Part shown: positions 20,322 through 42,417 of the stretch, in pieces
How positions within the stretch are numbered: position 1 is the stretch's first letter
Layout: every line of letters starts with the position of its first letter
Virus record (IMG/VR): IMGVR_UViG_3300028048_000076
Direction: 5' to 3' (one strand)
DNA: 64,000 nt
Source of the DNA: a virus
Lineage: Duplodnaviria; Heunggongvirae; Uroviricota; Caudoviricetes
The notes under the pieces: model-generated
Database searches by the model: none
Told to the model about the DNA's origin: nothing
Seen by the model: only the letters and a program-made list of their open reading frames with translations
Made by a program: the position numbers and the translations under genes

Positions 20322-20786
20322 ATGGCAAAAAAAGTTATTTTGGGGAACGTTGATTTGAGCGAAGTATCACAAACGCCGTGTTGGTATACGCTTGTTACTC
20401 AATTCAATTATGAGGAAAAAGCTGTAAACAATATTTGTGATGCAATTGACGGTACTGATTTTGCAGATAAAGTAGAAGACTTCTATATTCCTATCAAATA
20501 TAGTAAAGAAGTCGTTCATCTCGCAGACGGTTCGACCAAAAACAAAATCCACAAGGTTAAAGGTGCTTTATCTAATTACATTTTTATCAAATGTGTATTG
20601 GATGAAGGTCTTTGGAATTTGCTACGTACTACAACAGGTGTAGCAGTTATTCCGACAACAGGTGGTTTCCCTGTGGCTATTTCTGAACAGGAAATTAAAA
20701 AGATGAAAGAAAAACAAGCCCCTGAGGGATTTACCCCTGATGAATTAAAAGCCTTGCAAAATAAATTAAAATATAGTCTAGTTTGA
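20322..20786 (+). CDS. NusG N-terminal (NGN) domain protein without KOW domain
   Basis: WYTLVTQFNYEEKAV, FYIP, SNYIFIKC, LWNLLRTTTGV, PVAISEQEI. Confidence 0.85.
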   Translation: MAKKVILGNVDLSEVSQTPCWYTLVTQFNYEEKAVNNICDAIDGTDFADKVEDFYIPIKYSKEVVHLADGSTKNKIHKVKGALSNYIFIKCVLDEGLWNLLRTTTGVAVIPTTGGFPVAISEQEIKKMKEKQAPEGFTPDELKALQNKLKYSLV

Positions 20787-23829: not shown

Positions 23830-23909
23830 GAACATATTAATCCTTCTTTAGTGAATGAGTGATGGCAAAACAGTTATCACTCATTTTTAGTTTACAGAAA
23901 GGCATGGAA

Positions 23910-24737
23910 ATGAATAAGACATTATCATTGTTATTAAACGAAACAAACAACATTATTGTTAATGCACAGCATAACAAACATTATGACAATTACTGTATAT
24001 TCCGTCTAGCGTACCATTCAGACCCCCAAACGGCATTGAGATGGTTATTATACCTTCGAGATATTAAAAGCGGTCTAGGGCAACGTGAAGCGTTTAGAGG
24101 GCTATTAGTGGAAATAGCTAATCATGATATAGAATTAGCTATTAAACTATTACGATTGGATTTGGCTCAATATGGTAGATTTGATGATGAAATTTCCATC
24201 TATGATAAAGTGAATTCAGGTTGTAAAGCTGCTATTATTGATAAAATTAGACATTTACTAAAAGAAGATTTACAATTGGAATCTGAAGGTAAAGATATTT
24301 CTCTATTAGCAAAATGGATGCCATCAATTAATACAAGCAGCCCCCACACGAGAAAATTAGCAAATATGATTAGAAAAGATTTGTTATTATCACCAAGACA
24401 GTATAGAAAAATTCTTTCACGTTTAAGGAAACATTTAAATATTTTAGAAAGAAATTTATCAAAAAAAGACTACAAAAACATAAATTATGAAGAAATTTCT
24501 GCAAAAAATAACCAAAAATATGCAAAACTTTTTGAAAAAAATGATTCAGAACGCAGAATGGAATATTTGAAAAATAAAGAGCAAAAGGATAAGATGTATC
24601 GCATTTTAAATGAATATAATAAAACTATGGACAAGCAAGAAAAAACTGTAGAACAAATTATTTTCAGCGAAAGATACGATATAATCAACGAAATCTTTAC
24701 TCAAAAAAATGATGAAAAATTTGAAATAAATGCCTAA
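23910..24737 (+). CDS. DUF2828-like protein, lacking the usual C-terminal vWA part
   Basis: LLYLRDIKSGLGQREAF, YGRFDD, LLAKWMPSINTSS, YRKILSRLR. Confidence 0.7.
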   Translation: MNKTLSLLLNETNNIIVNAQHNKHYDNYCIFRLAYHSDPQTALRWLLYLRDIKSGLGQREAFRGLLVEIANHDIELAIKLLRLDLAQYGRFDDEISIYDKVNSGCKAAIIDKIRHLLKEDLQLESEGKDISLLAKWMPSINTSSPHTRKLANMIRKDLLLSPRQYRKILSRLRKHLNILERNLSKKDYKNINYEEISAKNNQKYAKLFEKNDSERRMEYLKNKEQKDKMYRILNEYNKTMDKQEKTVEQIIFSERYDIINEIFTQKNDEKFEINA

Positions 24738-27538: not shown

Positions 27539-27600
27539 AAAAACTATTGACAAAAATAAAATTCTTTGCTATGATTATAGTAAAGAAAGGAATGAGCGAT

Positions 27601-28989
27601 ATGAATTGTTATTATGGTACTCCGAAGCGTGGTTTTGAAATTGAAGTGCTTGTAGGATTACCTGCTAGTGGCAAAAGCACATATGCAAAGGCGAAGGAAA
27701 GCGAAGGGTATGTTGTTATTAGCAAAGATGATATTCGTCTAAAATGTGCTCGTAAGATGAATGATTTGGCATATGATGCGCCTGAAGGTTATTTTAAACC
27801 GTCCGAATTGCATCATTTCAGCAAAGTATGCAATGTAATCATTAATGATATTTGTGATAGTATTGTAAAATGGATAGCAAATAAATCGTTTTATGAAAAC
27901 GATTTAAATCGTAAGAGTCTGCACGAGTATACAGACGAAGAATATGAAGCCATACAAAAAGTATATTCGGAATACCTTAATCAGGTGTATAAAGCAAAGC
28001 ATGGTGTAATTTTTGATGCTACGTATTATACAAAGAAATCTCGTGTAATGTTTCCTGCGAAATTCAAGGATTGTGGTGTAAAACTCATTGCTCGTTATTT
28101 TGATTGCACTTTGGAAGAAGCTATCAAAGGTAATGAAGAGCGAAAGCAGTATAAAACGCTTTACAATGGCAAAGAATATGATGGTAGGCGAGTACCTGAT
28201 GATACATTGAGAAACATGTATAACAACCTCACTTTGCCAAGTGTAGAAGAAGGTTTTCATGTAGTCGTTGAAAACAAGCCGTGTTGTACAAAAATCAATG
28301 GTGATAAGTTGGTTCAGATGTATTATAACTTTGATAATTATTCTGAAGATGAAATTGCAGATATTTTTCCGAATGACTATTTCAAACAGTGCATCAATTT
28401 TAACCAATGTAATAGCCATCATACGCTTACCTTATCACAGCACATGTACCATTCTGCAAAATATGTTAAAGAGCATGGTGGTAATTTGACTACATTTATT
28501 GCGGCATTATTGCATGATGTAGGTAAGGCTGATACGAAAGGTTTATATGGTCGGTTAAATCGTGAATTCAACGGTTATAAGAATAATAAGGAATTGGAGA
28601 TTGTTGGTGAAGACGAAGTTTTTCATTGCGTAGACCCTTTTTCTAAGCATAAAATTGATGTACCGATGGATTATCTTGATGTAGATAGGGATTGTCACTA
28701 TTATAATCATCATGTAGTTTCAGCATTAAAGGCATGGCAAATGTTGAAAGGAATGTGTGATGAAAGAATGGCAAAAGATGTGTATAATCTCATTTATCAT
28801 CATATGGCAATACCTTTCAAATCAGATGATATTTCAACGAAAGCCTTGAATAAGATTAAGAAGTATTTAGGGGTTGAAGGGTTACATAATTTGGCATTGA
28901 TTAGGGAAGCTGATTTGTATGCAAAAGATTTGACCCCTCCAAATATCCCTGAATTAGTTACCTCAATTAAAAATTATCAATACATTTAA
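27601..28989 (+). CDS. Polynucleotide kinase (P-loop) fused to an HD phosphohydrolase
   Basis: VGLPASGKSTYAK, VIFDAT, RRVPDD; SHHTLTLSQHM, ALLHDVGK, YYNHHVVSA, EADL. Confidence 0.85.
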   Translation: MNCYYGTPKRGFEIEVLVGLPASGKSTYAKAKESEGYVVISKDDIRLKCARKMNDLAYDAPEGYFKPSELHHFSKVCNVIINDICDSIVKWIANKSFYENDLNRKSLHEYTDEEYEAIQKVYSEYLNQVYKAKHGVIFDATYYTKKSRVMFPAKFKDCGVKLIARYFDCTLEEAIKGNEERKQYKTLYNGKEYDGRRVPDDTLRNMYNNLTLPSVEEGFHVVVENKPCCTKINGDKLVQMYYNFDNYSEDEIADIFPNDYFKQCINFNQCNSHHTLTLSQHMYHSAKYVKEHGGNLTTFIAALLHDVGKADTKGLYGRLNREFNGYKNNKELEIVGEDEVFHCVDPFSKHKIDVPMDYLDVDRDCHYYNHHVVSALKAWQMLKGMCDERMAKDVYNLIYHHMAIPFKSDDISTKALNKIKKYLGVEGLHNLALIREADLYAKDLTPPNIPELVTSIKNYQYI

Positions 28990-32345: not shown

Positions 32346-34322
32346 ATGACAAAATATTCGCAGTTAGAGTTTGCAACTGCAATGTTGGGCTTGTTTAAGG
32401 CACTTCCTTGTGTAGATGAAATGTCTGAGCCTGTAAATCTTAATGATTCTGTAAAGATGGATTTTGTTCGCAAAGGTCTTATTTTATCTGATAAAGTCAT
32501 GCACCTTAAAATGCTGAAAAGCAGAGATATTCACTATGCAATTATCAGTAAAATGGGTCAATCGGCTGCGAAATTCAACAATACATTTTTTGAAAATATT
32601 GATAAGATTAGTTCTATGAAAGATGAAGAATATTATTTTCATCAGATTTTGAACTATCTCAGTTTCAATTTGGCAGATATGGGTCTTATTGATAATAGTG
32701 AGATTTATGTGCCGAACGAGAAAATTGGTATTTCTGAGGATATTCCTCCGTATCATTTGACTGTTGTGCAGGCAATGACCAAAGAGGAAACTAAAGAACG
32801 TATTGAAAAACTTTTGTATACAGGTGTAGCTTTGAAAGAAGAAACTGTATCGAAGATTTTCACTGTTAGTGATTGCTTCGGCTTTACTGATGAACTCGAT
32901 GCTGACAAGGTAAAGAATAAGGAAGCACAGCTTACCCTTTATAAACGTACAAATACAGTACCAAAGAATCCTGACTTCTTTGTACGCTATCTGTACTACC
33001 TTGCAACAGGTTCTACTATGCTTGTAAAGAGCAAACGTACTTATAAAATGTTGAACGATACATTGTGCTATAGCTCGTTAGTATCAAATGATATTGCAGG
33101 TGCATTGCGTAAGTATGTTAGCGATTATGGTTGCGAAACTCTTGCAAAAGCGTTTTATCGCAATAAGAAATTGCTTCTTCTCTTTAAAACTAAAGAAACT
33201 GCATACATTATCAATCGTACTCGCCGTTTGGCAGATAAGTACAAGAAAGCTCCGAAAGTCGGTGTTCTTGATAGATTGTCCGAACTCACTATGAAAGATT
33301 GGGATGATTTTGTTGCTGAAGTGGCTAAACTTAATGTATTTAAGAAAGTTGCTTTGATTAACTACATCATGAATCAGCATAGTGGCAATACAGATAGCTT
33401 GTATTTCATTCGTAATGGTAGAGTATTCTTCCGTGAGAATTACAGCGGTGGCAAGCCTAATATGCGATTCTTACAGCATCTCATTGAGAGTGTTGTGGAA
33501 GAAATGTCTCCTATTGTTGCAGGTAAGAAATTCTATATCCCACAGGGTATTGAATATGCTTTCCCTGTTTCTGAGAAGAAGTTCATTGGTGGCATTCCAT
33601 TCAATTCGAAGTTTACTTTGGAACGTAAGGGTGATGTACTCTTCGGTATTCATTGGTACAACTACGATAATGGTACGAAACACGGTAAAAGAACTGACCT
33701 TGACCTCCATATTACATCTGTATATGGTGAACGTATGGGTTGGAATAGCTATTATCGAGACAGTCAGCGTAGCACCTATTTTACAGGTGATATGACAGAT
33801 GCTCCTCGCAATGAAGGTGGTGCTTCTGAGTTGATGTATTTCACAAAGAATGCAAAACCGAATATGTATTCTGTAGCGATAAACAACTTTACCAACAATA
33901 ATTATCCGTTCCCATTCTCGTTGATTGTAAGCAATGCTGTCAATTATGAGGATGATGATAAGAGTGCTGTGGAAATTTGCAAAGATGCGTTTGTTAACAA
34001 CACTTGCAATTACATGACAGTGAATAATTATCTGAAGTCTGCAAACAATACTATGGGTTATTTCATTTTGAATGAAGATACCGCAGAGTTTGTATTTACA
34101 GATATGCAGGTTGGTAAATGTGTTGTACCGAATTCCATCGACTTCGATACCAAGATGATGAAATATATTTCTACTTATAGCGATACCGTTGTAAAACTGA
34201 AAGATGTTTTGGAATGGTGCAAGGCAGAAATTGTAGATGAACCTGTTGAAGGTTGCGTAAATCTTGATTATCGTGAGCTTGGCGAAACCACAATTCTTGA
34301 TGCTTTCTGCAAAAAGGATTGA
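32346..34322 (+). CDS. Large phage protein with TerD-like C-terminal beta domain
   Basis: FGIHW..RTDLDLH..GWNS..FTGDMTDAP..GASE. Confidence 0.55.
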   Translation: MTKYSQLEFATAMLGLFKALPCVDEMSEPVNLNDSVKMDFVRKGLILSDKVMHLKMLKSRDIHYAIISKMGQSAAKFNNTFFENIDKISSMKDEEYYFHQILNYLSFNLADMGLIDNSEIYVPNEKIGISEDIPPYHLTVVQAMTKEETKERIEKLLYTGVALKEETVSKIFTVSDCFGFTDELDADKVKNKEAQLTLYKRTNTVPKNPDFFVRYLYYLATGSTMLVKSKRTYKMLNDTLCYSSLVSNDIAGALRKYVSDYGCETLAKAFYRNKKLLLLFKTKETAYIINRTRRLADKYKKAPKVGVLDRLSELTMKDWDDFVAEVAKLNVFKKVALINYIMNQHSGNTDSLYFIRNGRVFFRENYSGGKPNMRFLQHLIESVVEEMSPIVAGKKFYIPQGIEYAFPVSEKKFIGGIPFNSKFTLERKGDVLFGIHWYNYDNGTKHGKRTDLDLHITSVYGERMGWNSYYRDSQRSTYFTGDMTDAPRNEGGASELMYFTKNAKPNMYSVAINNFTNNNYPFPFSLIVSNAVNYEDDDKSAVEICKDAFVNNTCNYMTVNNYLKSANNTMGYFILNEDTAEFVFTDMQVGKCVVPNSIDFDTKMMKYISTYSDTVVKLKDVLEWCKAEIVDEPVEGCVNLDYRELGETTILDAFCKKD

Positions 34323-34410
34323 TTTGATAGACCGCTTCGGCGGTCTATTTTTTTACAAAATTATTGACAAAATATACGAAATAAATTATAATAAACATGA
34401 GGTGATTAGA

Positions 34411-35361
34411 ATGGAGCAGAATGTAAAAGATGAATTTTATAAGCATTATAGCGAAAAAGTGCCTAACATTTGCTATTTAACGTTGGCAGGTAGTAAATCA
34501 TATGGTACAAATAATGAAAACTCTGATACAGATATTCGAGGGTTTTACCTTGAAACAAAAGAACAGTTGTTTGGACTAACTAAATATTCTACAGAATATA
34601 CGGATAGTGAAAATGATACTGTATTGTATTCATTTAAGAAGTTCTTGCATTTGTTGAGTAATTGTAATCCTAATGTAATTGAATTGCTTGGTACGAGAAA
34701 CGAAGATGTATTGTATATGACAGCATTATCTAGGGAAATGCGAATGAATGCTGAAATGTTTTTATCCAAACGAGCATATGTAACGTTTGGCGGTTATGCA
34801 GTGCAGCAGTTGCGTAGATTGCAGAACGCTTTGAGTCGCACTGACAATAAATTGAAGGAAGAACAGCTTTTAAAAACATTAAATCAGCAGATTGTTGAAA
34901 ATGTAGATGAATTATCAGCTTTGGGAAAATACGAATTACATATTGATGAAGAATTGAAAATTTCTGCAAATGTAAAAGATATATCTCTTAGAGATTTTTT
35001 GAATTCAAATGCTATTTTGAATAATACTATGCGTAATTTTGATAAAATTGGGCATAGGAATAACAAAAAAGACGAAAATCATTTGAATAAACATGCCATG
35101 CATTTGATTAGATTATATTATATGGGTATTGATATTCTTAAAAATGGTGTTATTAACACTTATCGTGAAAAAGAACACGATTTATTGATGACAATTCGTA
35201 ATGGCGAAATGTCATTTGATAAAGTTTTTGAAATGAGAGATAAACTTGAAGTAGAACTCCAAAAAGCATATGAAGAAAGTAAATTGCCTGAAACTGCTGA
35301 TATGAATAAAATTAATAAGTTCTGCATTGATGTATTAAATACGAATTTGAGGTGGGAATGA
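34411..35361 (+). CDS. DNA polymerase beta-superfamily nucleotidyltransferase (Nuc-transf/RlaP-like)
   Basis: LAGSKSYGTNNENSDTDIRG, NPNVIELL, KHAMHLIRL. Confidence 0.85.
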   Translation: MEQNVKDEFYKHYSEKVPNICYLTLAGSKSYGTNNENSDTDIRGFYLETKEQLFGLTKYSTEYTDSENDTVLYSFKKFLHLLSNCNPNVIELLGTRNEDVLYMTALSREMRMNAEMFLSKRAYVTFGGYAVQQLRRLQNALSRTDNKLKEEQLLKTLNQQIVENVDELSALGKYELHIDEELKISANVKDISLRDFLNSNAILNNTMRNFDKIGHRNNKKDENHLNKHAMHLIRLYYMGIDILKNGVINTYREKEHDLLMTIRNGEMSFDKVFEMRDKLEVELQKAYEESKLPETADMNKINKFCIDVLNTNLRWE

Positions 35362-35741
35362 TGGCTAAAATTGTTGTTGCAGGTGGGAGAACATATACAA
35401 ATACAGGCATGGTTTTTATTTGTTTGGAAGATATTGTTCAAAAAGATGATGTAATTATTTCAGGTCATGCTAAAGGCGTAGATATGATGGGAGAATTTTA
35501 TGCCCAAAAGAACAATTTAGTTTGTGAAATCTATCCTGCGGAATGGGACAAATATGGAAGAAGTGCAGGCCCTAGACGTAATGAGAAAATGGCACAGATT
35601 GCAGATAAGGTAGTTGTATTTTGGGACTTCAAATCTCGTGGTACAAAAAACATGATTGATATGGCTAAAAAATATAAGAAAGAGTTGTTCATCTTTGATT
35701 ATTTTGGCAATTTAAAACAACATTTTTTATTCAATGATTAA
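35358..35741 (+). CDS. SLOG-family (DUF2493) protein
   Basis: VAGGR, ISGHAKGVD, AEWDKYGRSAGPRRN, SRGTKNMI. Confidence 0.85.
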   Translation: MMAKIVVAGGRTYTNTGMVFICLEDIVQKDDVIISGHAKGVDMMGEFYAQKNNLVCEIYPAEWDKYGRSAGPRRNEKMAQIADKVVVFWDFKSRGTKNMIDMAKKYKKELFIFDYFGNLKQHFLFND

Positions 35742-37076: not shown

Positions 37077-37781
37077 GTGAAAAATAGAGTTCCTGTTAAT
37101 TTGAATATTATGGCAATAGATATAGGACTAAATTATCTTGGAGCTTGTACAACTACAACACATGACCACTTTTTGTTGGATGGACATTTGTTAAAATCCT
37201 GGTCATTTTTCTATTTGAAAAAAGTGCATGAATTAGAAAAGATTAATCCACAATCCAAAAGAATTTATAAATATAAACAAAAAAACCTTGCCTATATCAA
37301 TCAGTATATTTTCAAAGTAAACTCTTATCTGAAAAGATATTGTAAAAAAAACAAAATCCATACGATAATTATCGGTAAAATTCCGACAAAGAAGATTAAG
37401 AAAAATAATTTGTTCTTTAACATGGATTATGATTATCAAAATGTCAATTCGTATATAATGTCTTGTATGTACTATGAGACAATTGATATGGCGAAGCAGA
37501 ACAATATATCTGTTGTATTTATTGATGAAGCACATACATCCAATTGTAGTTTTTATGATAATGAATGGCTTATTTACAAACATCGTAAAGGGAGAGTTTG
37601 TAGAGGAAGATTTAAAACGTTTGATGGGCATAATGTCCATGCAGATATAAATGCTAGTTTAAATTTCTTTAGGAAAAATGAAAAATGTGAACGGTTATTG
37701 GATTTTGAAAAAGCAAAGGAAAGAATGCTTTTACATCCACGAAAAGTATTCTTTCCTGACAACAATCAAAAAAAATTATAA
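37077..37781 (+). CDS. Truncated TnpB (IS200/IS605 OrfB)-like RuvC-domain protein
   Basis: AIDIGLNYL, IDEAHTSNCSFYD, GRFKT, HADINASLN; N-terminal region missing and no tnpA nearby. Confidence 0.75.
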   Translation: MKNRVPVNLNIMAIDIGLNYLGACTTTTHDHFLLDGHLLKSWSFFYLKKVHELEKINPQSKRIYKYKQKNLAYINQYIFKVNSYLKRYCKKNKIHTIIIGKIPTKKIKKNNLFFNMDYDYQNVNSYIMSCMYYETIDMAKQNNISVVFIDEAHTSNCSFYDNEWLIYKHRKGRVCRGRFKTFDGHNVHADINASLNFFRKNEKCERLLDFEKAKERMLLHPRKVFFPDNNQKKL

Positions 37782-37796
37782 AAATATATTTTTGTG

Positions 37797-37830
37797 TTGA
37801 CAAATATATATGAAAAGTATATAATAAGAA
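37797..37830 (+). promoter_or_regulatory. Promoter of a small RNA
   Basis: TTGACA followed by TATAAT; no RBS or ORF downstream. Confidence 0.7.
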
Positions 37831-37914
37831 TGTAATCGCTGATGCGATTATACAGTTTGTTTTTCATTTTAACAATCTCCGACTTCTCACTTTGTTCGGT
37901 TGAAGTGGGGAGTT
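37831..37914 (+). ncRNA. Candidate ~85-nt small RNA
   Basis: 5' hairpin TAATCGC/GCGATTA, U-rich linker, 3' hairpin; bounded by a promoter and an HDV-like ribozyme. Confidence 0.5.
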
Positions 37915-37980
37915 GGCACTATGATACAGCCTTTCCGTGGCAGTGCTATAAGTAGTTCGCAAGAACGAAACCAATGTATC
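37915..37980 (+). ncRNA. HDV-like ribozyme 1
   Basis: P1 GGCACT/AGTGCT, P2 GATACA/TGTATC, P3 GCC/GGC, L3 TTTCCGT, P4 GTTC/GAAC, J4/2 GAAACCAA. Confidence 0.85.
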
Positions 37981-38068
37981 AATCCTTTCAATATATAAAT
38001 ATTGGAAAAATCTCCCACGCCTTTTCTACCTTTATCAACGTGGGAGATTTTTTTGTGAGGGACATGTA

Positions 38069-38404
38069 ATGATATATACAACATATTTTGCGAAAACAAA
38101 ATTAATTAAGGAAAAAGATAAACTTGTTTCAATAACAAGATTTCCTCCTAAAAATATTAGCATGAAATCATTTCAGAAATTAGCACCATCAAAAGAATTG
38201 TTAAATAAGTATAAAACAGATGGTGATAAAGAATATTTCATTAACGAATTCAATAAGTATTTAGATTCATTAGATGCAAAAGCATTTGCTGAATTTTTAG
38301 ATGGATATATTCTTTGTTGCTATGAAAAATCAACGGATTTTTGTCATAGACATTTAGTTGCAGAATGGTTTAGAAGAAATGGCTATGGTTGTGAGGAGTT
38401 ATAA
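38069..38404 (+). CDS. DUF488 family protein
   Basis: IYTTYF, LAPSKELL, LCCYEK..FCHRHLVAEW. Confidence 0.8.
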   Translation: MIYTTYFAKTKLIKEKDKLVSITRFPPKNISMKSFQKLAPSKELLNKYKTDGDKEYFINEFNKYLDSLDAKAFAEFLDGYILCCYEKSTDFCHRHLVAEWFRRNGYGCEEL

Positions 38405-38599
38405 TGAACGTTACATTGGTATATGGTGGCAAACGTATTAACGTGGAATCTGTGGATGCAATAATAAAACGTGAGCGTGGAGAAGAAGTATTCATTAACT
38501 TGCTGTCACATGATTCTCTTGACGTTGATAATTACATTAGTAAATTAAAAAGTTTAGACGGAACAAAATATAAAATGTGAAAATATTTTTGTAAAACGC

Positions 38600-38911
38600 T
38601 TGACAAATATGTACAAAGATTGTATAATAAGAATGTAGTTGAGAGATAAACAAATGACTTGAATGTTTCATTAATTCTTTCAATAAATTCTAAAAAAGTG
38701 CTTGACAAGATAAAGACATTTTGATATAATAATAAATGTCAAAAGCGAGAAATTAAATTGACTTGATTGTAACAATTAATTCTCGAAAATCTTAAAAAAA
38801 AGTGCTTGACAATAACATTGAAAAATGTTATAATAAAGAAGTCGATTGAGATTGAAATAAATCAAAATCACAAAAAAAGATGTTGACAAATTATCACAAA
38901 AGTGATATAAT
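38600..38911 (+). promoter_or_regulatory. Four tandem consensus sigma70 promoters driving the RNA cluster
   Basis: TTGACA at 38600, 38702, 38806 and 38883, each with TATAAT at 17 bp and an A-rich upstream tract. Confidence 0.85.
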
Positions 38912-38917
38912 AAAGAA

Positions 38918-39188
38918 GTCAGTTAAGGCGACCTACTCTCAACGGAGTAAAACAACAAGTAGTTGAGAGAATAAAAGTAAAGGATAGTACCACTTCTTAT
39001 ATTCATGCTATACATGATTTAGAAATAAGAGCCTGACTGATGGCGAAAGAGAATTCTTAGGAGTTATGACCCCTGTAGGACAAGGCATAACATTATCATC
39101 CGAATAAGGTTGCAGTCTTATGAAGGTGCTTAAAAAAAATTCGTTAGGTCTTTGAAGGTTATTTTTCCATTCTCTACCTTCAGAGATA
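38918..39188 (+). ncRNA. Unidentified ~270-nt structured RNA A
   Basis: No ORF; hairpins CTCTCAAC/GTTGAGAG, TTATG/CATAA, TCTTTGAAGGT/ACCTTCAGAGA; ends at a ribozyme cleavage site. Confidence 0.5.
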
Positions 39189-39260
39189 GCAATTCAATAA
39201 CACATACCGTCACGAGGTGAATTGTGTAATTAGTCAGAAATGATGAAACTAAATTGTGTG
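39189..39260 (+). ncRNA. HDV-like ribozyme 2
   Basis: P1 GCAATTC/GAATTGT, P2 ACACA/TGTGT, P3 ACC/GGT, L3 GTCACGA, P4 GTCA/TGAT, J4/2 GAAACTAA. Confidence 0.8.
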
Positions 39261-39271
39261 AAATTTAATAC

Positions 39272-39346
39272 TGCCCAATCGTCTAACGGTTAGGATGACA
39301 GACTTTGAATCTGTAGGTGTTGTTTCGACTACAACTTGGGCTGCCA
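39272..39346 (+). tRNA. tRNA-Gln(TTG)
   Basis: Cloverleaf, CT-TTG-AA loop, encoded CCA. Confidence 0.9.
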
Positions 39347-39419
39347 ATGATTTTTAAAACTTCAGACTTGATGTGAAAATATCGTTTCTTCCTGTTTTCT
39401 GAAGTTTTGAAATAAATTT

Positions 39420-39681
39420 GAATAATCTGCCTAACAATGGATTGATAATTGTCTTTTTAAGACATGGGCAGAAAAACGTTGCAAAAGCAATATAAATCCT
39501 AAGTCTTACAGAATCATGTGATGGCCTCCGAAAATCAATGATTTGTGTTTGAACTTCTACTAAAATTAGTAAGATAGGGACGAATTGCACTGCGAAAGCT
39601 GTATATCCCTGAATGTAACGCGCTGTATGTATCACATAACAGATGAAGTTGGGAGTACCCTATAGGAAACTATGGGGATAT
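39420..39681 (+). ncRNA. Unidentified ~260-nt structured RNA B
   Basis: Helices TCTGCCT/GGGCAGA, TGTCTT/AAGACA, AACTTC/GAAGTT, GGGA/TCCC, CCCTATAG/CTATGGGG; ends at a ribozyme cleavage site. The 5' end is approximate. Confidence 0.5.
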
Positions 39682-39758
39682 GACAATCAATTTTGCAAAC
39701 CTTCTCGTGGTGATTGTCGTAAGTATACATTTTTTGAAATGTAGAAACAAATTGCAAA
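39682..39758 (+). ncRNA. HDV-like ribozyme 3
   Basis: P1 GACAATC/GATTGTC, P2 TTTGCAA/TTGCAAA, P3 ACC/GGT, L3 TTCTCGT, P4 TACATTT/AAATGTA, J4/2 GAAACAAA. Confidence 0.85.
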
Positions 39759-39803
39759 TAAAACTGTAAACTATATGTATTTAATAGTTACCAAACAAAA
39801 ATG

Positions 39804-39942
39804 TTTTTGCATAAACAACTTCCTTTCAGTCTTGCAAAACTATTTTAGTTGTCGCAAAAATAAATATAAAAATTTAATAACGGCATAAATAGCTTCCTTT
39901 TGAAAAATTATTTATGGGAAAGTAATTTAGTTATCGCCGTTA
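39804..39942 (+). repeat. Anti-SD hairpin motif, copies a (39804-39860) and b (39878-39942)
   Basis: stem-ATAA-6bp-TCCTTT...TT-6bp-C-stem. Confidence 0.75.
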
Positions 39943-39948
39943 ATATAT

Positions 39949-40022
39949 GCACTTCTAGTTTAATGGTAAAACTTCGGTTTTGTAAACCGACAATATCAGT
40001 TCAATTCTGATGGGGTGCTCCA
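39949..40022 (+). tRNA. tRNA-Thr(TGT)
   Basis: Cloverleaf, TT-TGT-AA loop, CCA. Confidence 0.9.
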
Positions 40023-40027
40023 ATAAT

Positions 40028-40100
40028 GGCTCGTTGGTCTAGTGGTCTAGGACATTACTCTTTCAAGGTAGTAACAGCAGTTCAAATCTGCTACGAGTCA
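40028..40100 (+). tRNA. tRNA-Glu(TTC), no encoded CCA
   Basis: Cloverleaf, CT-TTC-AA loop; a ribozyme starts right after the discriminator. Confidence 0.9.
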
Positions 40101-40167
40101 GTCACTCAAAGCATTAGCCTTTACGTTGGCGAGTGACATAAGTAGGTTAACCGAAACTAATAATGCT
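40101..40167 (+). ncRNA. HDV-like (theta) ribozyme 4
   Basis: P1 GTCACTC/GAGTGAC, P2 AGCATTA/TAATGCT, P3 GCC/GGC, J4/2 GAAACTAA. Confidence 0.85.
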
Positions 40168-40170
40168 AAA

Positions 40171-40298
40171 AGTCTTGTGACGAAATAGGTAAACGTTATG
40201 TGTAACTTGACACAAACCTTGGCAGTGTGGTTCGATTCCACGATACAAGAATGGAGAAAGCAAGGGATAATGTAAGGTGCAAATCCTTACCAAGACTT
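40171..40298 (+). ncRNA. tRNA-like RNA with two T-arms
   Basis: Acceptor AGTCTTG/CAAGACT, D-arm, internal GTGGTTCGATTCCAC and terminal GTAAGGTGCAAATCCTTAC; no canonical 7-nt anticodon loop. Confidence 0.65.
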
Positions 40299-40390
40299 TT
40301 GTAATTAAAGATATTAAGCTAACATCTTCCCCACTTGTGAACCTGAGATGTAAAGATTGTACAGATATAGGATATAATCAGCTTCATAAT

Positions 40391-40465
40391 ACCTTGGGTG
40401 CGTGTAATGGTAACACGGCTAGACTGTGAATCTAGTAATATGGGTTCGAATCCCATCCCTCGGAC
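40391..40465 (+). tRNA. tRNA-His(GTG), mismatched acceptor stem, no CCA
   Basis: CT-GTG-AA loop, intact T-arm; acceptor CCTTGGG/CCCTCGG has two mismatches. Confidence 0.7.
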
Positions 40466-40537
40466 GGTTTTCTTAAACATCAACCTTCTCGTGGTGAAAA
40501 CTGTAAGTAATCATTTATGATAAAACTAATAGATGTT
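40466..40537 (+). ncRNA. HDV-like (theta) ribozyme 5
   Basis: P1 GGTTTTC/GAAAACT, P3 ACC/GGT, L3 TTCTCGT, P4 ATCAT/ATGAT, P2 AACATC/GATGTT. Confidence 0.85.
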
Positions 40538-40540
40538 AAA

Positions 40541-40608
40541 AAAAGACAAAAAGCACTTCCTTTTGCTAATGCGCCGATTTGTTAAATCGTTTTTAGTGCT
40601 CGTCTTTT
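40541..40608 (+). repeat. Anti-SD hairpin motif, copy c
   Basis: AAAGAC-AAAA-AGCACT-TCCTTT...AGTGCT-C-GTCTTT. Confidence 0.75.
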
Positions 40609-40613
40609 AAAAA

Positions 40614-40690
40614 GGCCCTATAGTTTAGTTGGTCAAAACATCGCCCTGTCACGGCGAAGACCATCGGTTCAAGTCCGATTAGGGTCGCCA
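40614..40690 (+). tRNA. tRNA-Asp(GTC)
   Basis: Cloverleaf, CT-GTC-AC loop, CCA. Confidence 0.92.
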
Positions 40691-40695
40691 AATAT

Positions 40696-40772
40696 GTGTC
40701 AGTAGCTCAGTTGGTAGTAGCAACAGACTTTTAATCTGTAGGTCGTGGATTCAAGTTCCACCTGACACACCA
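40696..40772 (+). tRNA. tRNA-Lys(TTT)
   Basis: Cloverleaf, CT-TTT-AA loop, CCA. Confidence 0.92.
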
Positions 40773-40778
40773 TATTAT

Positions 40779-40859
40779 TCCGCAGTGATGAAATGGTAGA
40801 CATGCTTGACTGTTAATCAAGTGCCGAAAGGCGTGTAGGTTCGAGTCCTACTTGCGGAG
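40779..40859 (+). tRNA. tRNA-Asn(GTT) with long variable arm, no CCA
   Basis: CT-GTT-AA loop, variable arm GCC-GAAA-GGC, G discriminator. Confidence 0.85.
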
Positions 40860-40931
40860 GTTATTCGATAACATCAACCTTTACGTGGTGAATAACATAA
40901 GTAATCATTTATGATGAAACTAATAGATGTT
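40860..40931 (+). ncRNA. HDV-like (theta) ribozyme 6
   Basis: P1 GTTATTC/GAATAAC, P3 ACC/GGT, L3 TTTACGT, P4 ATCAT/ATGAT, J4/2 GAAACTAA. Confidence 0.88.
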
Positions 40932-40935
40932 AAAA

Positions 40936-40990
40936 TAAAGACATAAAACACTTCCTTTTACAACAGGTGTTTGGTTAGTGTTCGTCTTTA
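40936..40990 (+). repeat. Anti-SD hairpin motif, copy d
   Basis: AAAGAC-ATAA-AACACT-TCCTTT...AGTGTT-C-GTCTTT. Confidence 0.75.
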
Positions 40991-40996
40991 AAAAAA

Positions 40997-41083
40997 GCGA
41001 GGATGGCGAAATCAGGCATACGCACAGAGTTTAAGCCTCTGCGGTTTTATACCATGTGGGTTCGACCCCCACTCTTCGCACCA
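40997..41083 (+). tRNA. tRNA-Leu(TAA)
   Basis: Class II cloverleaf, TT-TAA-GC loop, CCA. Confidence 0.9.
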
Positions 41084-41084
41084 T

Positions 41085-41168
41085 GCCCTTGTGCTGAAAT
41101 TGGCAGACAGGGTGCGCTCAAAACGCACTGATGGTAACATCGTACAGGTTCAAATCCTGTCAGGGGCA
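41085..41168 (+). tRNA. tRNA-Leu(CAA), no CCA
   Basis: Class II cloverleaf, CT-CAA-AA loop, A discriminator followed by a ribozyme. Confidence 0.9.
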
Positions 41169-41239
41169 GTTATCCAATAACATCAACCTTTACGTGGTGG
41201 ATAATATAAGTAATTCATAAGAATGAAACTAATGATGTT
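41169..41239 (+). ncRNA. HDV-like (theta) ribozyme 7
   Basis: P1 GTTATCC/GGATAAT, P2 AACATCA/TGATGTT, P3 ACC/GGT, P4 ATTC/GAAT. Confidence 0.88.
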
Positions 41240-41244
41240 AAATG

Positions 41245-41705
41245 CTTTGTGGAAATGGCAACTGATTTCAACGAAACAAACGTATTGTACCTTCGATTGA
41301 GATTACAGTTGAGAGTATTAAATCAAAGTAATCATGCTAGTACCCCATTTTGGACACACTAGGAATTTTGCTTAATGACTGTGGAGATTGATTATCGTAG
41401 AAGCAGTAAAACACCACACAAATTATGGGCTTTATTAAGGTTAGCGTCTTATGAAGTCGAATCGAATCCGAACTAAATCGTATAATCGCCCACACATAAC
41501 GCTAATGTGATGGAGAAATACGATGGAAGGCCCTTTTGGCACGAGGGTACGGATATGGTATGCAGAGAACTACAACCTGTCAGTGAGTTATCAGCTGCGA
41601 ATGTAGCCGTAGAATACCGCGAGAGCGTATCGAGGGAGAAGGCGAACTCTCGACGTTAGGTGTAAAATACGCAAGAGGTTATGATGCCACATAACTTCGT
41701 CTTTA
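41245..41705 (+). ncRNA. Candidate large ornate RNA (ROOL/GOLLD class)
   Basis: ~460 nt with no ORF, more GC-rich than its flanks, many helices (GGGC/GCCC, TTAGCGT/ACGCTAA, TCGAG/CTCGA, AGTTATG-type), inside the tRNA array. Confidence 0.45.
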
Positions 41706-41706
41706 T

Positions 41707-41797
41707 GGAGCAGTACCCAAGTGGTTATAAGGGAACAGTCTTGAAAACTGTGAGGTCGCAGTGATGCGGTGCGTGAGTTCGAATCTCACCTGCTCTT
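41707..41797 (+). tRNA. tRNA-Ser(TGA), no CCA
   Basis: Class II cloverleaf, CT-TGA-AA loop. Confidence 0.88.
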
Positions 41798-41798
41798 C

Positions 41799-41867
41799 GT
41801 TGTTCATTGTATCAGCCTTTTCGTGGCGAACAACATAAGTAATCAAAATGATGAAACCAATGATACT
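41799..41867 (+). ncRNA. HDV-like (theta) ribozyme 8
   Basis: P1 GTTGTTC/GAACAAC, P2 GTATCA/TGATAC, P3 GCC/GGC, L3 TTTTCGT, J4/2 GAAACCAA. Confidence 0.85.
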
Positions 41868-41883
41868 ATTAAATATAATTAAT

Positions 41884-41958
41884 GCGAATATAATTTAATG
41901 GTTAGAATCTCAGTCTTCCAAACTGATTGTGTCGGTTCGATTCCGACTATTCGCTCCA
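41884..41958 (+). tRNA. tRNA-Gly(TCC)
   Basis: CT-TCC-AA loop, U discriminator, CCA. Confidence 0.9.
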
Positions 41959-41962
41959 TAAT

Positions 41963-42049
41963 GGGTAGGTGTGATAAGCGGCGAAATCAGCGGACTGTAA
42001 ATCCGTGACACTAGAAACATCGAAGGTTCGAGTCCTTCCCTGCCCACCA
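41963..42049 (+). tRNA. tRNA-Tyr(GTA)
   Basis: CT-GTA-AA loop, long variable arm, CCA. Confidence 0.9.
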
Positions 42050-42128
42050 CGTTACCGAAGAGAAATTACTTTAACGTAGTGGTAACGTTAAGTATGTATT
42101 TTAACAATACAGAAACTAAAAATTTCTC
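42050..42128 (+). ncRNA. HDV-like (theta) ribozyme 9
   Basis: P1 CGTTACC/GGTAACG, P2 GAGAAATT/AATTTCTC, P3 ACT/AGT, L3 TTAACGT, P4 TGTATT/AATACA; starts right after CCA. Confidence 0.8.
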
Positions 42129-42282
42129 ATATAAATATTTTTTTGGCTGACGAAGCCACTCTAAAAATATTTTGGAGTGTAGCACATTAATGTGCTACTA
42201 TTTAATTTGCTTAATTAAGAAATGGTAAACGGACTTCAATTATCTGAATGCTCCCAAAAAACCTTTCTTTAAAAAAAATATA

Positions 42283-42417
42283 TTTTGGCATAAATAACTT
42301 CCTTTTTTTTACAGCTAAATGAAAAACACTTGTTTAGTTATCGCCAAAACAAGATTTCAAGTATGGCAAAAAATAGTTCCTTTTCTTATTTATCAGATAC
42401 TATAGAAATGCCGTTAT
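42283..42417 (+). repeat. Anti-SD hairpin motif, copies e (42283-42349) and f (42362-42417, degenerate)
   Basis: TTTTGGC-ATAA-ATAACT-TCCTTT...AGTTAT-C-GCCAAAA. Confidence 0.7.

Follow-up and report, generated by a model that had tools for sequence, protein, structure and literature searches.

Theta ribozymes, which are minimal ribozymes of the hepatitis delta virus (HDV)-like type from gut Caudoviricetes, were defined by Kienbeck et al. (2024, Nat Commun), who proposed that they remove the 3' trailers of tRNAs (PMC10879173). Trailer removal is the sole function proposed so far for theta ribozymes, and more than 40% of the published cases are non-tRNA ones that it leaves unexplained. These comprise 526 of 1281 hits in annotated databases (42%) and a further 7704 metagenomic ones; such isolated ribozymes lie mostly in noncoding DNA, more than 200 nucleotides (nt) from an open reading frame (ORF) and in sense orientation, and were said to "likely serve unknown biological functions" (PMC10879173). 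The main text of that paper makes no mention of upstream hairpins or of positions in untranslated regions, and among the papers searched we found no later one that takes up the isolated ribozymes. Here, we describe three theta ribozymes (ribozymes 1, 2, and 3) that start at positions 37915, 39189, and 39682 of a 64,000-nt stretch of viral DNA (IMG/VR record IMGVR_UViG_3300028048_000076), hereafter the window, together with the hairpin-terminated segments that precede them (RNA-1, RNA-2, and RNA-3). The initial annotation of this DNA had offered them as its best candidate for an undescribed system, a description that does not hold, since isolated theta ribozymes were already published and their existence is therefore known. 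What is new is that the upstream products are delimited and not tRNA-like, that one of them, RNA-3, is found in RNA libraries, that a terminal hairpin regularly precedes the cut, and that the cargo is swapped between related phages. The window is part of a phage contig of about 206 kb from cattle rumen, an identical stretch occurs on a 206,324-bp ENA contig, and its sequence was recovered from bovine and pig gut sequencing runs. Between 37.8 and 42.1 kb, the + strand is scarcely coding, except for two short ORFs at 38069 to 38580, and 12 tRNA genes are located at 39272 to 42049.

Stable non-tRNA RNAs, known as species 1 and 2, are co-transcribed in the tRNA cluster of phage T4. Likewise, the structured RNAs GOLLD and ROOL are found between tRNA genes of phages, with which they are probably transcribed together (Weinberg et al. 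2017, PMC5737381). The present locus resembles both cases in having structured RNAs amid phage tRNA genes; however, the ends of the described RNAs are attributed to host RNases, whereas a ribozyme stands at the 3' boundary in this phage. HDV-like ribozymes are also found at the 5' ends of the retrotransposon RNAs R2 and L1Tc (cited in PMC10879173). As with those, the ribozymes described here are predicted to cut at their own 5' edge, which would remove the upstream RNA and leave the ribozyme on the downstream one. Nevertheless, R2 and L1Tc are eukaryotic mobile elements whose useful product lies downstream, whereas in this phage a terminal hairpin is dedicated to the upstream piece, and one such piece or more appears to accumulate.

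The ribozymes were identified with an explicit descriptor consisting of P1, J1/2, P2, P3, an L3 with CG, P1.1, a J1/4 of the form NNAANTA, P4, AAAC-N-AA, and P2'. Exactly nine elements were found in the window, all on the + strand, with zero matches on the - strand and zero in 200 shuffles of the window. Six of the nine begin at the base after a tRNA (tRNA-Glu, -His, -Asn, -Leu, -Ser, and -Tyr), and the predicted cut lies within 5 nt of a tRNA 3' end in these six and in none of the other three. Ribozyme 1 (37915 to 37981) has P1 GGCACT/AGTGCT, P2 TGATACA/TGTATCA, and P3 GCC/GGC, with a predicted cut at 37914/37915. Ribozyme 2 (39189 to 39259), which ends 13 nt before the start of tRNA-Gln, has P1 GCAATTC/GAATTGT, P2 ACACA/TGTGT, and P3 ACC/GGT, with a predicted cut at 39188/39189, and ribozyme 3 (39682 to 39758) has P1 GACAATC/GATTGTC and P2 TTTGCAA/TTGCAAA, with a predicted cut at 39681/39682. 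Every pair of P1 (6 to 7 bp), P2 (5 to 8 bp), P3 (3 bp), and P1.1 is canonical in all nine copies, and most helix positions show two to five pair types across them. P1.1, formed by the third base of L3 and the first base after P1, covaries (T-A five times, C-G three times, and A-T once). Ribozymes 1 to 3 and the six tRNA-linked copies all have the double-pseudoknot topology, with P1, P2, P3, P1.1, and a short P4 in the HDV order. The catalytic C occupies the first position of J4/2 in all nine, the motif being AAAC-C-AA, AAAC-T-AA, and AAAC-A-AA in ribozymes 1, 2, and 3, respectively, and the +1 base of these three is a G (G37915 and G39189 in G-U pairs and G39682 in a G-C pair). The double pseudoknot, the catalytic C at the head of J4/2, and the short P4 are likewise features of the published isolated theta ribozymes, which also come from animal-gut phages and lie in noncoding regions in sense orientation.

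Since MAFFT mis-registered P1 in two copies, homology was assessed with a sequence-only profile next to the explicit descriptor, rather than with a structured covariance model. The profile, built solely from the six tRNA-linked copies and run on the 64-kb window, detected ribozyme 1 (E = 1.5e-7), ribozyme 3 (E = 2.1e-7), and ribozyme 2 (E = 1e-6), and nothing beyond them up to E = 10. In Rfam, the best match for five of the nine copies was HDV-F-prausnitzii (RF02682), which, like other drz families, has the same nested P1/P2/P3/P1.1/P4 arrangement. Ribozyme 3 scored 23.2 bits and four tRNA-linked copies 17.9 to 25.8 bits; this model did not match ribozymes 1 and 2, and no copy reached its gathering score of 44 bits. 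Because the tRNA-linked copies also remain below the cutoff, the model is too narrow, and the low scores are no argument against the copies. Ribozyme 1 is kept in L007, a contig whose TnpB-like protein is 95% identical to that of the window, with changes only in J1/2, L4, and position 2 of J4/2. Ribozyme 3 has an ortholog at positions 1228 to 1354 of L012, a contig of a related phage, in which P1 is identical and P4 much enlarged. Members of the theta class self-cleave in vitro (PMC10879173). Judged from their sequences, the three elements are genuine theta-class ribozymes whose cleavage is predicted, and descriptor, pairing, and profile agree with the initial annotation that they share the fold of the tRNA-linked copies. 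Among the latter, the tRNA-Tyr ribozyme (42050 to 42128) comes after a CCA that is encoded in the DNA, and in the parse its P1 (CGTTACC/GGTAACG) begins with C, not G; it may cut one base later, leaving CCA-C.

The segments upstream of the three cuts are on the + strand, and each ends in a hairpin. RNA-1 (37832 to 37914) spans about 83 nt from its predicted start and contains two hairpins, a 5' one of 8 bp and a 3' one of 14 bp, the latter flush with the cut. RNA-2 (38918 to 39188) extends about 271 nt from the last of four promoters and ends in a 12-bp hairpin plus 1 to 2 nt, and RNA-3 (39347 to 39681) occupies up to 335 nt from tRNA-Gln to ribozyme 3 and closes with an 8-bp hairpin, capped by GAAA, and the 4-nt tail AUAU. 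No + strand ORF of 30 amino acids (aa) or more is present in any of them. These observations bear out the earlier description of hairpin-terminated, noncoding segments in front of each ribozyme; the lengths then given, about 85, 270, and 260 nt, stand for the first two, whereas the third is 335 nt when counted from the end of tRNA-Gln. RNA-1 has a minimum free energy (MFE) of -27.3 kcal/mol (z = -4.29 versus shuffles), and RNA-3 also folds better than shuffles (z = -3.14). In L006, L007, and sequencing run X3, the 5' hairpin of RNA-1 shows the compensatory change C37839T plus G37844A, which converts C-G to T-A, and in the 3' hairpin a G-U pair has become A-U through a G-to-A change.

To see this arrangement beyond a single phage, a core pattern was used to collect 115 IMG/VR loci (L013 to L127), in which the descriptor identified 73 ribozymes, 63 of them not linked to tRNAs and 48 of these unique. 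A terminal hairpin was scored when the 40 nt directly upstream folded into a helix of 5 bp or more that ended no more than 4 nt before the cut, and 600 random 40-mers from the same loci served as controls. A hairpin abutted the cut in 36 of the 48 unique non-tRNA ribozymes (75%), compared with 138 of 600 controls (23%), and the median MFE of the last 40 nt was -11.2 versus -3.9 kcal/mol. Therefore, a hairpin-terminated segment followed by a ribozyme is a rule of the class and not peculiar to the phage of the window. The commonest unpaired tail before the cut was 1 nt, like the discriminator base of a tRNA. None of the surveyed non-tRNA ribozymes lies within a same-strand ORF; the next same-strand ORF starts a median of 40 nt downstream of the 48 unique ribozymes, many at 23 to 37 nt, and the previous one stops a median of 363 nt upstream. 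Together with the present locus, the 48 cases provide a testable rule, by which the cut is abutted by a stable hairpin and the next RNA would be capped by the ribozyme. Separately, a recurrent upstream hairpin, AAAGGCACAGCGGTGCCTTT plus A, is common to many of the surveyed contigs, and among ten downstream ORFs scanned, one encodes a single-strand DNA-binding protein and nine have no known function.

The tail length and the paired end raise the possibility that what lies upstream of each cut is a degenerate tRNA or a tRNA-like mimic, in which case ribozymes 1 to 3 would be ordinary trailer ribozymes whose tRNA has decayed. A terminal helix with a short tail, modally of 1 nt in the survey, does recall an acceptor stem with its discriminator base, and a degenerate tRNA-like element is present elsewhere in the array, at about 40174 to 40251. 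However, ARAGORN called no tRNA in RNA-1, RNA-2, or RNA-3, the Rfam tRNA model (RF00005) gave no match up to E = 10, the segments are 83, 271, and 335 nt long, and no T-loop or anticodon-arm pattern was seen in them. This reading is very improbable and, as far as sequence models can tell, refuted. Moreover, a search against 4227 Rfam families on stretches of 7 kb, 351 nt, and 606 nt, small search spaces thus included, yielded no credible match to the three segments up to E = 10, and the models for ROOL, GOLLD, YrlA, HEARO, tmRNA, RNase P, and 6S RNA likewise gave none, by sequence or by structure. As the initial annotation had supposed, the segments correspond to neither a known family nor a degenerate tRNA. 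The tRNA-like element at about 40174 to 40251 itself lies between the tRNA-Glu ribozyme and tRNA-His; read by eye, it has a T-arm (GTGGTTCGATTCCAC), a 5-bp acceptor-like stem, and an odd anticodon loop, and it was called by neither ARAGORN nor Rfam.

RNA-3 was found in RNA libraries from at least six studies (rumen metatranscriptomes), in which 0.5 to 0.93 of the sampled words of RNA-3 alone were present. In three of the RNA-3-containing runs (X21, X22, and X24), only 0.06 to 0.13 of the words from the entire 4.3-kb locus were present. Thus, RNA libraries preferentially contain RNA-3, which is what a stable RNA would lead one to expect. An RNA-library contig covering 39374 to 39652, with 0 to 1 differences from the window, was found in two RNA libraries from one sample; runs X5 and X7 are one sample. 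Contig depth was 894 and 336 for RNA-3 and 2 to 24 for most other contigs, which is a hint only, since expression is poorly measured by the depth of contigs. RNA-1 was not seen in RNA-library contigs among the pieces listed, which is uninformative given that it is too short. These data point to RNA-3 as an RNA that accumulates in stable form and is probably a functional phage noncoding RNA (ncRNA) of an uncatalogued family, and they make it a concrete product for study. Several other features of the RNA contigs were set aside. Uncovered stretches and the absence of RNA contigs over the three cut sites were rejected as evidence of cleavage, as contigs cannot show ends, and so were the starts of RNA contigs 12 to 39 nt past several cut sites, among the pieces listed. 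A 93-aa minus-strand ORF over RNA-3 (39354 to 39635) has no Pfam match and was provisionally treated as spurious.

The junctions and the segments before them behave differently in a related phage, which is represented by two overlapping contigs of one sample (L003 and L012). Its TnpB-like protein is 63% identical to that of the window, and its DUF488 protein is 80% identical in aa (79.5% for the gene in nt). After the TnpB-like gene, this phage has a promoter and then, in place of RNA-1, another small RNA (about 150 nt) with a terminator hairpin, without a ribozyme. Its fourth tandem promoter leads directly into tRNA-Gln, with RNA-2 and ribozyme 2 missing, and the conserved tRNA-Gln is followed by a highly structured 313-nt RNA (z = -4.56) whose long hairpin ends 2 nt before the cut of the ribozyme 3 ortholog. 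This RNA has no detectable similarity to RNA-3 (z = 0.3). Thus, ribozyme 3 is kept behind an unrelated RNA, which indicates that the junction is conserved and the cargo swappable. In strain contigs from DNA runs X2 and X3, modules of the array are joined at breakpoints inside ribozyme sequences; in one joint, 39126 to 39245 is replaced by 192 other letters, and in another (40687/39225), tRNA-Asp leads via a different ribozyme 5' half into the 3' half of ribozyme 2. From the position of these breakpoints, the repeated ribozyme cores seem to serve as recombination points for the shuffling of tRNA and ncRNA cassettes.

Such joints inside ribozymes, together with the unlike module content of related phages, could also mean that ribozymes 1 to 3 are inactive relics or recombination scars of tRNA-linked copies, left by module shuffling. 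Nevertheless, all their helices are perfectly paired with the catalytic C and the conserved junctions intact, ribozyme 1 is kept with neutral changes in L007, and ribozyme 3 is kept in L012 although its upstream neighbor is wholly changed. We consider a relic origin highly unlikely.

Taken with the survey and the RNA libraries, the reading that we favor, and hold to be probable although well short of certain, is that the three ribozymes are processing junctions that cut strongly transcribed ncRNA, with at least RNA-3 as a stable and probably functional product. In the mechanism proposed, ribozymes 1 to 3 would be portable junctions of the order terminal hairpin, cut, and ribozyme in a rumen jumbo phage. 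Very strong promoters, one before RNA-1 and four before RNA-2 and the tRNA array, would drive noncoding transcripts, and each ribozyme, once transcribed, would fold and cut at its own 5' edge in the infected cell. The upstream piece would be freed with a 2',3'-cyclic phosphate just past a stable, protective hairpin, and the ribozyme would remain on the downstream piece as a structured cap with a 5'-OH. The downstream pieces would be the leader of the DUF488 mRNA, the precursor of tRNA-Gln, and a spacer with the precursor of tRNA-Thr, and the upstream pieces would be structured, non-tRNA RNAs that vary among related phages as swappable cargo. If correct, bacterial viruses would generate defined RNA ends by RNA catalysis, in a general alternative to terminators and RNases, which would aid the annotation of many "empty" noncoding stretches in phage genomes and offer RNA engineering a natural source of compact, insulated ribozyme cassettes.

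The same cuts may instead chiefly serve the downstream RNA, by removing a leader or spacer and providing a ribozyme-capped 5'-OH end that protects or uncouples the DUF488 mRNA and the tRNA-Gln and tRNA-Thr precursors (ribozymes 1, 2, and 3, respectively); the upstream RNAs would then be by-products and RNA-3 merely a stable one. The survey distances agree with this, with medians of 40 nt to the next ORF start and 363 nt from the previous stop. Ribozyme 1 is 88 nt before the start of DUF488, and neither a scan nor inspection by eye found a promoter between them, so that RNA-1 may be a small RNA or merely the leader of the DUF488 mRNA. Ribozyme 2 ends just 13 nt before tRNA-Gln, and the related phage keeps ribozyme 3 without the upstream segments of the window. 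However, the enriched terminal hairpin sits on the upstream piece, which is easier to explain if the upstream 3' end matters, although the hairpin could simply insulate the folding of the ribozyme. RNA-3 is found in libraries of several studies that are poor in the neighboring sequence, and RNA-1 shows a compensatory change. In addition, the 5' ends of tRNAs are made by RNase P, and no ribozyme is needed for them. A mainly downstream role is thus a serious alternative, but we judge it unlikely. The general 3'-end-forming module postulated in the initial annotation is partly supported, by the recurrence of hairpin and ribozyme (36 of 48) and by RNA-3; the cut could equally serve the RNA downstream.

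Several observations weigh against our reading of the ribozymes as junctions that release ncRNAs. About half of the 48 surveyed ribozymes lie 23 to 60 nt before an ORF start, a position that points to a role for the downstream mRNA, and in many cases the downstream RNA may be the beneficiary. The RNA evidence consists of assembled contigs from public runs, in which ends, strand, and level are unreadable. Furthermore, the RNA-3 contig stops at 39652 in the two runs of one sample, 29 nt before the RNA is predicted to end, and the mature 3' end may therefore not be at 39681. The overall fold of RNA-2 is no better than that of shuffles (z = -1.3). RNA-1, RNA-2, and RNA-3 are absent or replaced in the closest diverged relative, a turnover that fits dispensable spacers equally with swappable cargo, and no homologs of the three were found outside near-identical strains; as a result, there is no covariation support for RNA-2 or RNA-3. 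Of the three probable new ncRNAs counted in the initial annotation, RNA-3 is the one present in RNA libraries; the loss or replacement of the RNAs in the related phage and the possible leader role of RNA-1 tell against taking all three as functional.

The searches for relatives covered several collections. In INPHARED phages, megablast and blastn with 37700 to 42200 returned tRNA matches only, and in IMG/VR, protein queries with the TnpB-like, 833-aa, and RlaP sequences gave no close relative, and DNA patterns from RNA-2 gave no match or one chance match in a coding region. A metagenome scan with the TnpB-like alignment returned only two short contigs, at 95 to 96% identity. Using nhmmer, RNA-1, RNA-2, RNA-3, and the 313-nt RNA of L012 found nothing in the 115 theta-containing IMG/VR loci or in L008, and contigs of more distant DUF488 relatives (L010, L011, and L128 to L130) were not syntenic.

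A more ambitious view of the same junctions is that hairpin, a tail of about 1 nt, and theta ribozyme form a portable RNA-end cassette for plugging any structured RNA into tRNA operons with high transcription. The hairpin would mimic the acceptor helix and discriminator base of a tRNA, and the same phage healing or tailing enzymes would act on both kinds of end; RNA-3 would represent a new family, as a functional ncRNA that is abundant and owes its mature 3' end to RNA catalysis. Candidates for such enzymes could be the kinase-HD fusion, the RlaP nucleotidyltransferase, the YAcAr protein, and the DUF488 protein of the window. We regard this extended view as speculative and rather doubtful as a whole. 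As a separate observation, an RNA-repair-type gene cluster lies upstream of the ribozyme and tRNA array, with, in order, DUF2828 (23859 to 24737), an AAA_33 kinase-HD fusion (27547 to 28989), an RlaP nucleotidyltransferase (34264 to 35361), a YAcAr SLOG protein (35352 to 35741), and DUF488 (38069 to 38404). This set could heal or tail cyclic-phosphate ends. RtcB, an RNA ligase, and a classical CCA-adding enzyme were not found among the window ORFs scanned.

Directly upstream of the RNA-1 unit, the + strand encodes a RuvC-only TnpB-like protein of 234 aa (37077 to 37781) that corresponds to the C-terminal half of TnpB. Systems of TnpB with omega RNA, as well as nuclease-dead TnpB-like repressors, are known, and the locus resembles these in placing a RuvC protein of TnpB ancestry beside a dedicated small-RNA gene. 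RNA-1, and perhaps RNA-2, might accordingly be a partner or guide RNA descended from omega RNA, with the ribozyme setting its exact 3' end, in the way that HDV ribozymes are attached to guide RNAs in engineering. The protein matched OrfB_IS605 (1.2e-5) and Cas12f1-like_TNB (5e-5) in Pfam, both just below the cutoff. In support of a guide role, the family profile aligns to about residues 185 to 410 of TnpBs of 400 to 430 aa. The RuvC D-E-D triad (D15, E151, and D190) is kept in relatives of 225 to 229 aa, with members of 225 to 234 aa in three lineages. Moreover, in each of the four lineages examined (window, L003, L004, and L131), a consensus promoter with a structured RNA comes directly after the TnpB-like gene, and the RNA after the L003 gene has a 24-nt motif in common with RNA-2. 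However, the guide RNA is held by the N-terminal WED/REC part of TnpB, and the 234-aa protein lacks the 135 to 190 N-terminal residues of its full-length relatives. The zinc-finger cysteines are not conserved in the family, and the RNA of the window has its own promoter and a 3' end buried in a 14-bp hairpin rather than a free guide-like 3' segment, so that RNA-1 does not resemble an omega RNA. None of the three RNAs has a guide-like match elsewhere in the window or a match of at least 14 nt to a plausible target there, the RNAs behind the TnpB-like genes differ in sequence between lineages, and the RNA in L003/L012 has no ribozyme. A guide function is thus most improbable. Searched against PDB sequences, the TnpB-like profile had no significant match. 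Members of this family are found at 37077 to 37781 of the window, L003:988-1677, L004:136-813, and L131:2758-3846, and the nearest longer relatives have 353 to 362 aa.

RNA-2 has a different kinship within the window. At 39098 to 39131, it repeats the two-tier 5' hairpin seen in another structured RNA, RNA-4b, with UAAGGUUNNNGUCUUA within the outer stem and its counterpart at 41432 to 41465, and the two RNAs also have AGTTGAGAG in common at a similar offset. Therefore, RNA-2 may be a partial or truncated paralog of RNA-4b, capped by a hairpin and a ribozyme. RNA-4b is a conserved structured RNA of about 280 nt, located at 41425 to 41706 of the window, L008:1984-2280 (minus strand), and L131:751-1050. 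It lies inside the tRNA arrays of three large phages, that of the window and two others, each time directly before a tRNA. In the window, it forms the last 280 nt or so of a 466-nt gap (41241 to 41706), behind about 180 additional nt and the tRNA-Leu ribozyme. RNAalifold predicted 58 pairs for RNA-4b, 15 of which show compensatory changes on both sides, and no Rfam match was found for it. RNA-library contigs over RNA-4b cover 41181 to 41644. A resemblance of "UAAGGUUGCAGUCUUAUGAAG" to a Cas9/IscB nexus was dropped, as members of the RNA-4b family have this motif as their 5' hairpin and HEARO gave no match.

The promoters of the locus are perfect matches to the sigma-70-type consensus on the + strand. 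The promoter of RNA-1 (37797 to 37825) consists of TTGACA, a 17-nt spacer, and TATAAT (12/12), and its hexamers are kept in L006 and L007, the spacer being free to vary. The four promoters ahead of RNA-2 and the tRNA array (38600 to 38911, starting at 38600, 38702, 38806, and 38883; each 12/12) are also present in the related phage L012, and without a terminator between them, all should feed one ncRNA and tRNA transcript. Each is followed by a short related unit with a G-T/A-G-GTTGAGAGATAAA... hairpin, both in the window and in L012 (483 to 815). Upstream of this array, a terminator-like hairpin (CTCCCACG...CGTGGGAG) with a T-run was read at 38012 to 38054 (+ strand), 14 nt before the DUF488 start codon at 38069. 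It shows a compensatory change in L007 (CCCCCACG...CGTGGGGG), and an analogous hairpin occupies the equivalent position in L012. Another hairpin, which carries GGCATAAA-N-ACTTCCTTTT, is repeated at 39804 to 39826, 39878 to 39901, 40541 to 40564, 40936 to 40959, 42283 to 42306, and 42362 to 42384; the motif is the complement of a ribosome-binding site plus start codon, and the hairpin lies in the spacers between ribozymes and downstream tRNAs, and is conserved in L012 (1395 to 1420 and 1458 to 1480). Finally, the phage encodes a NusG-like protein at 20322 to 20786 (Pfam NusG, 4.8e-12).

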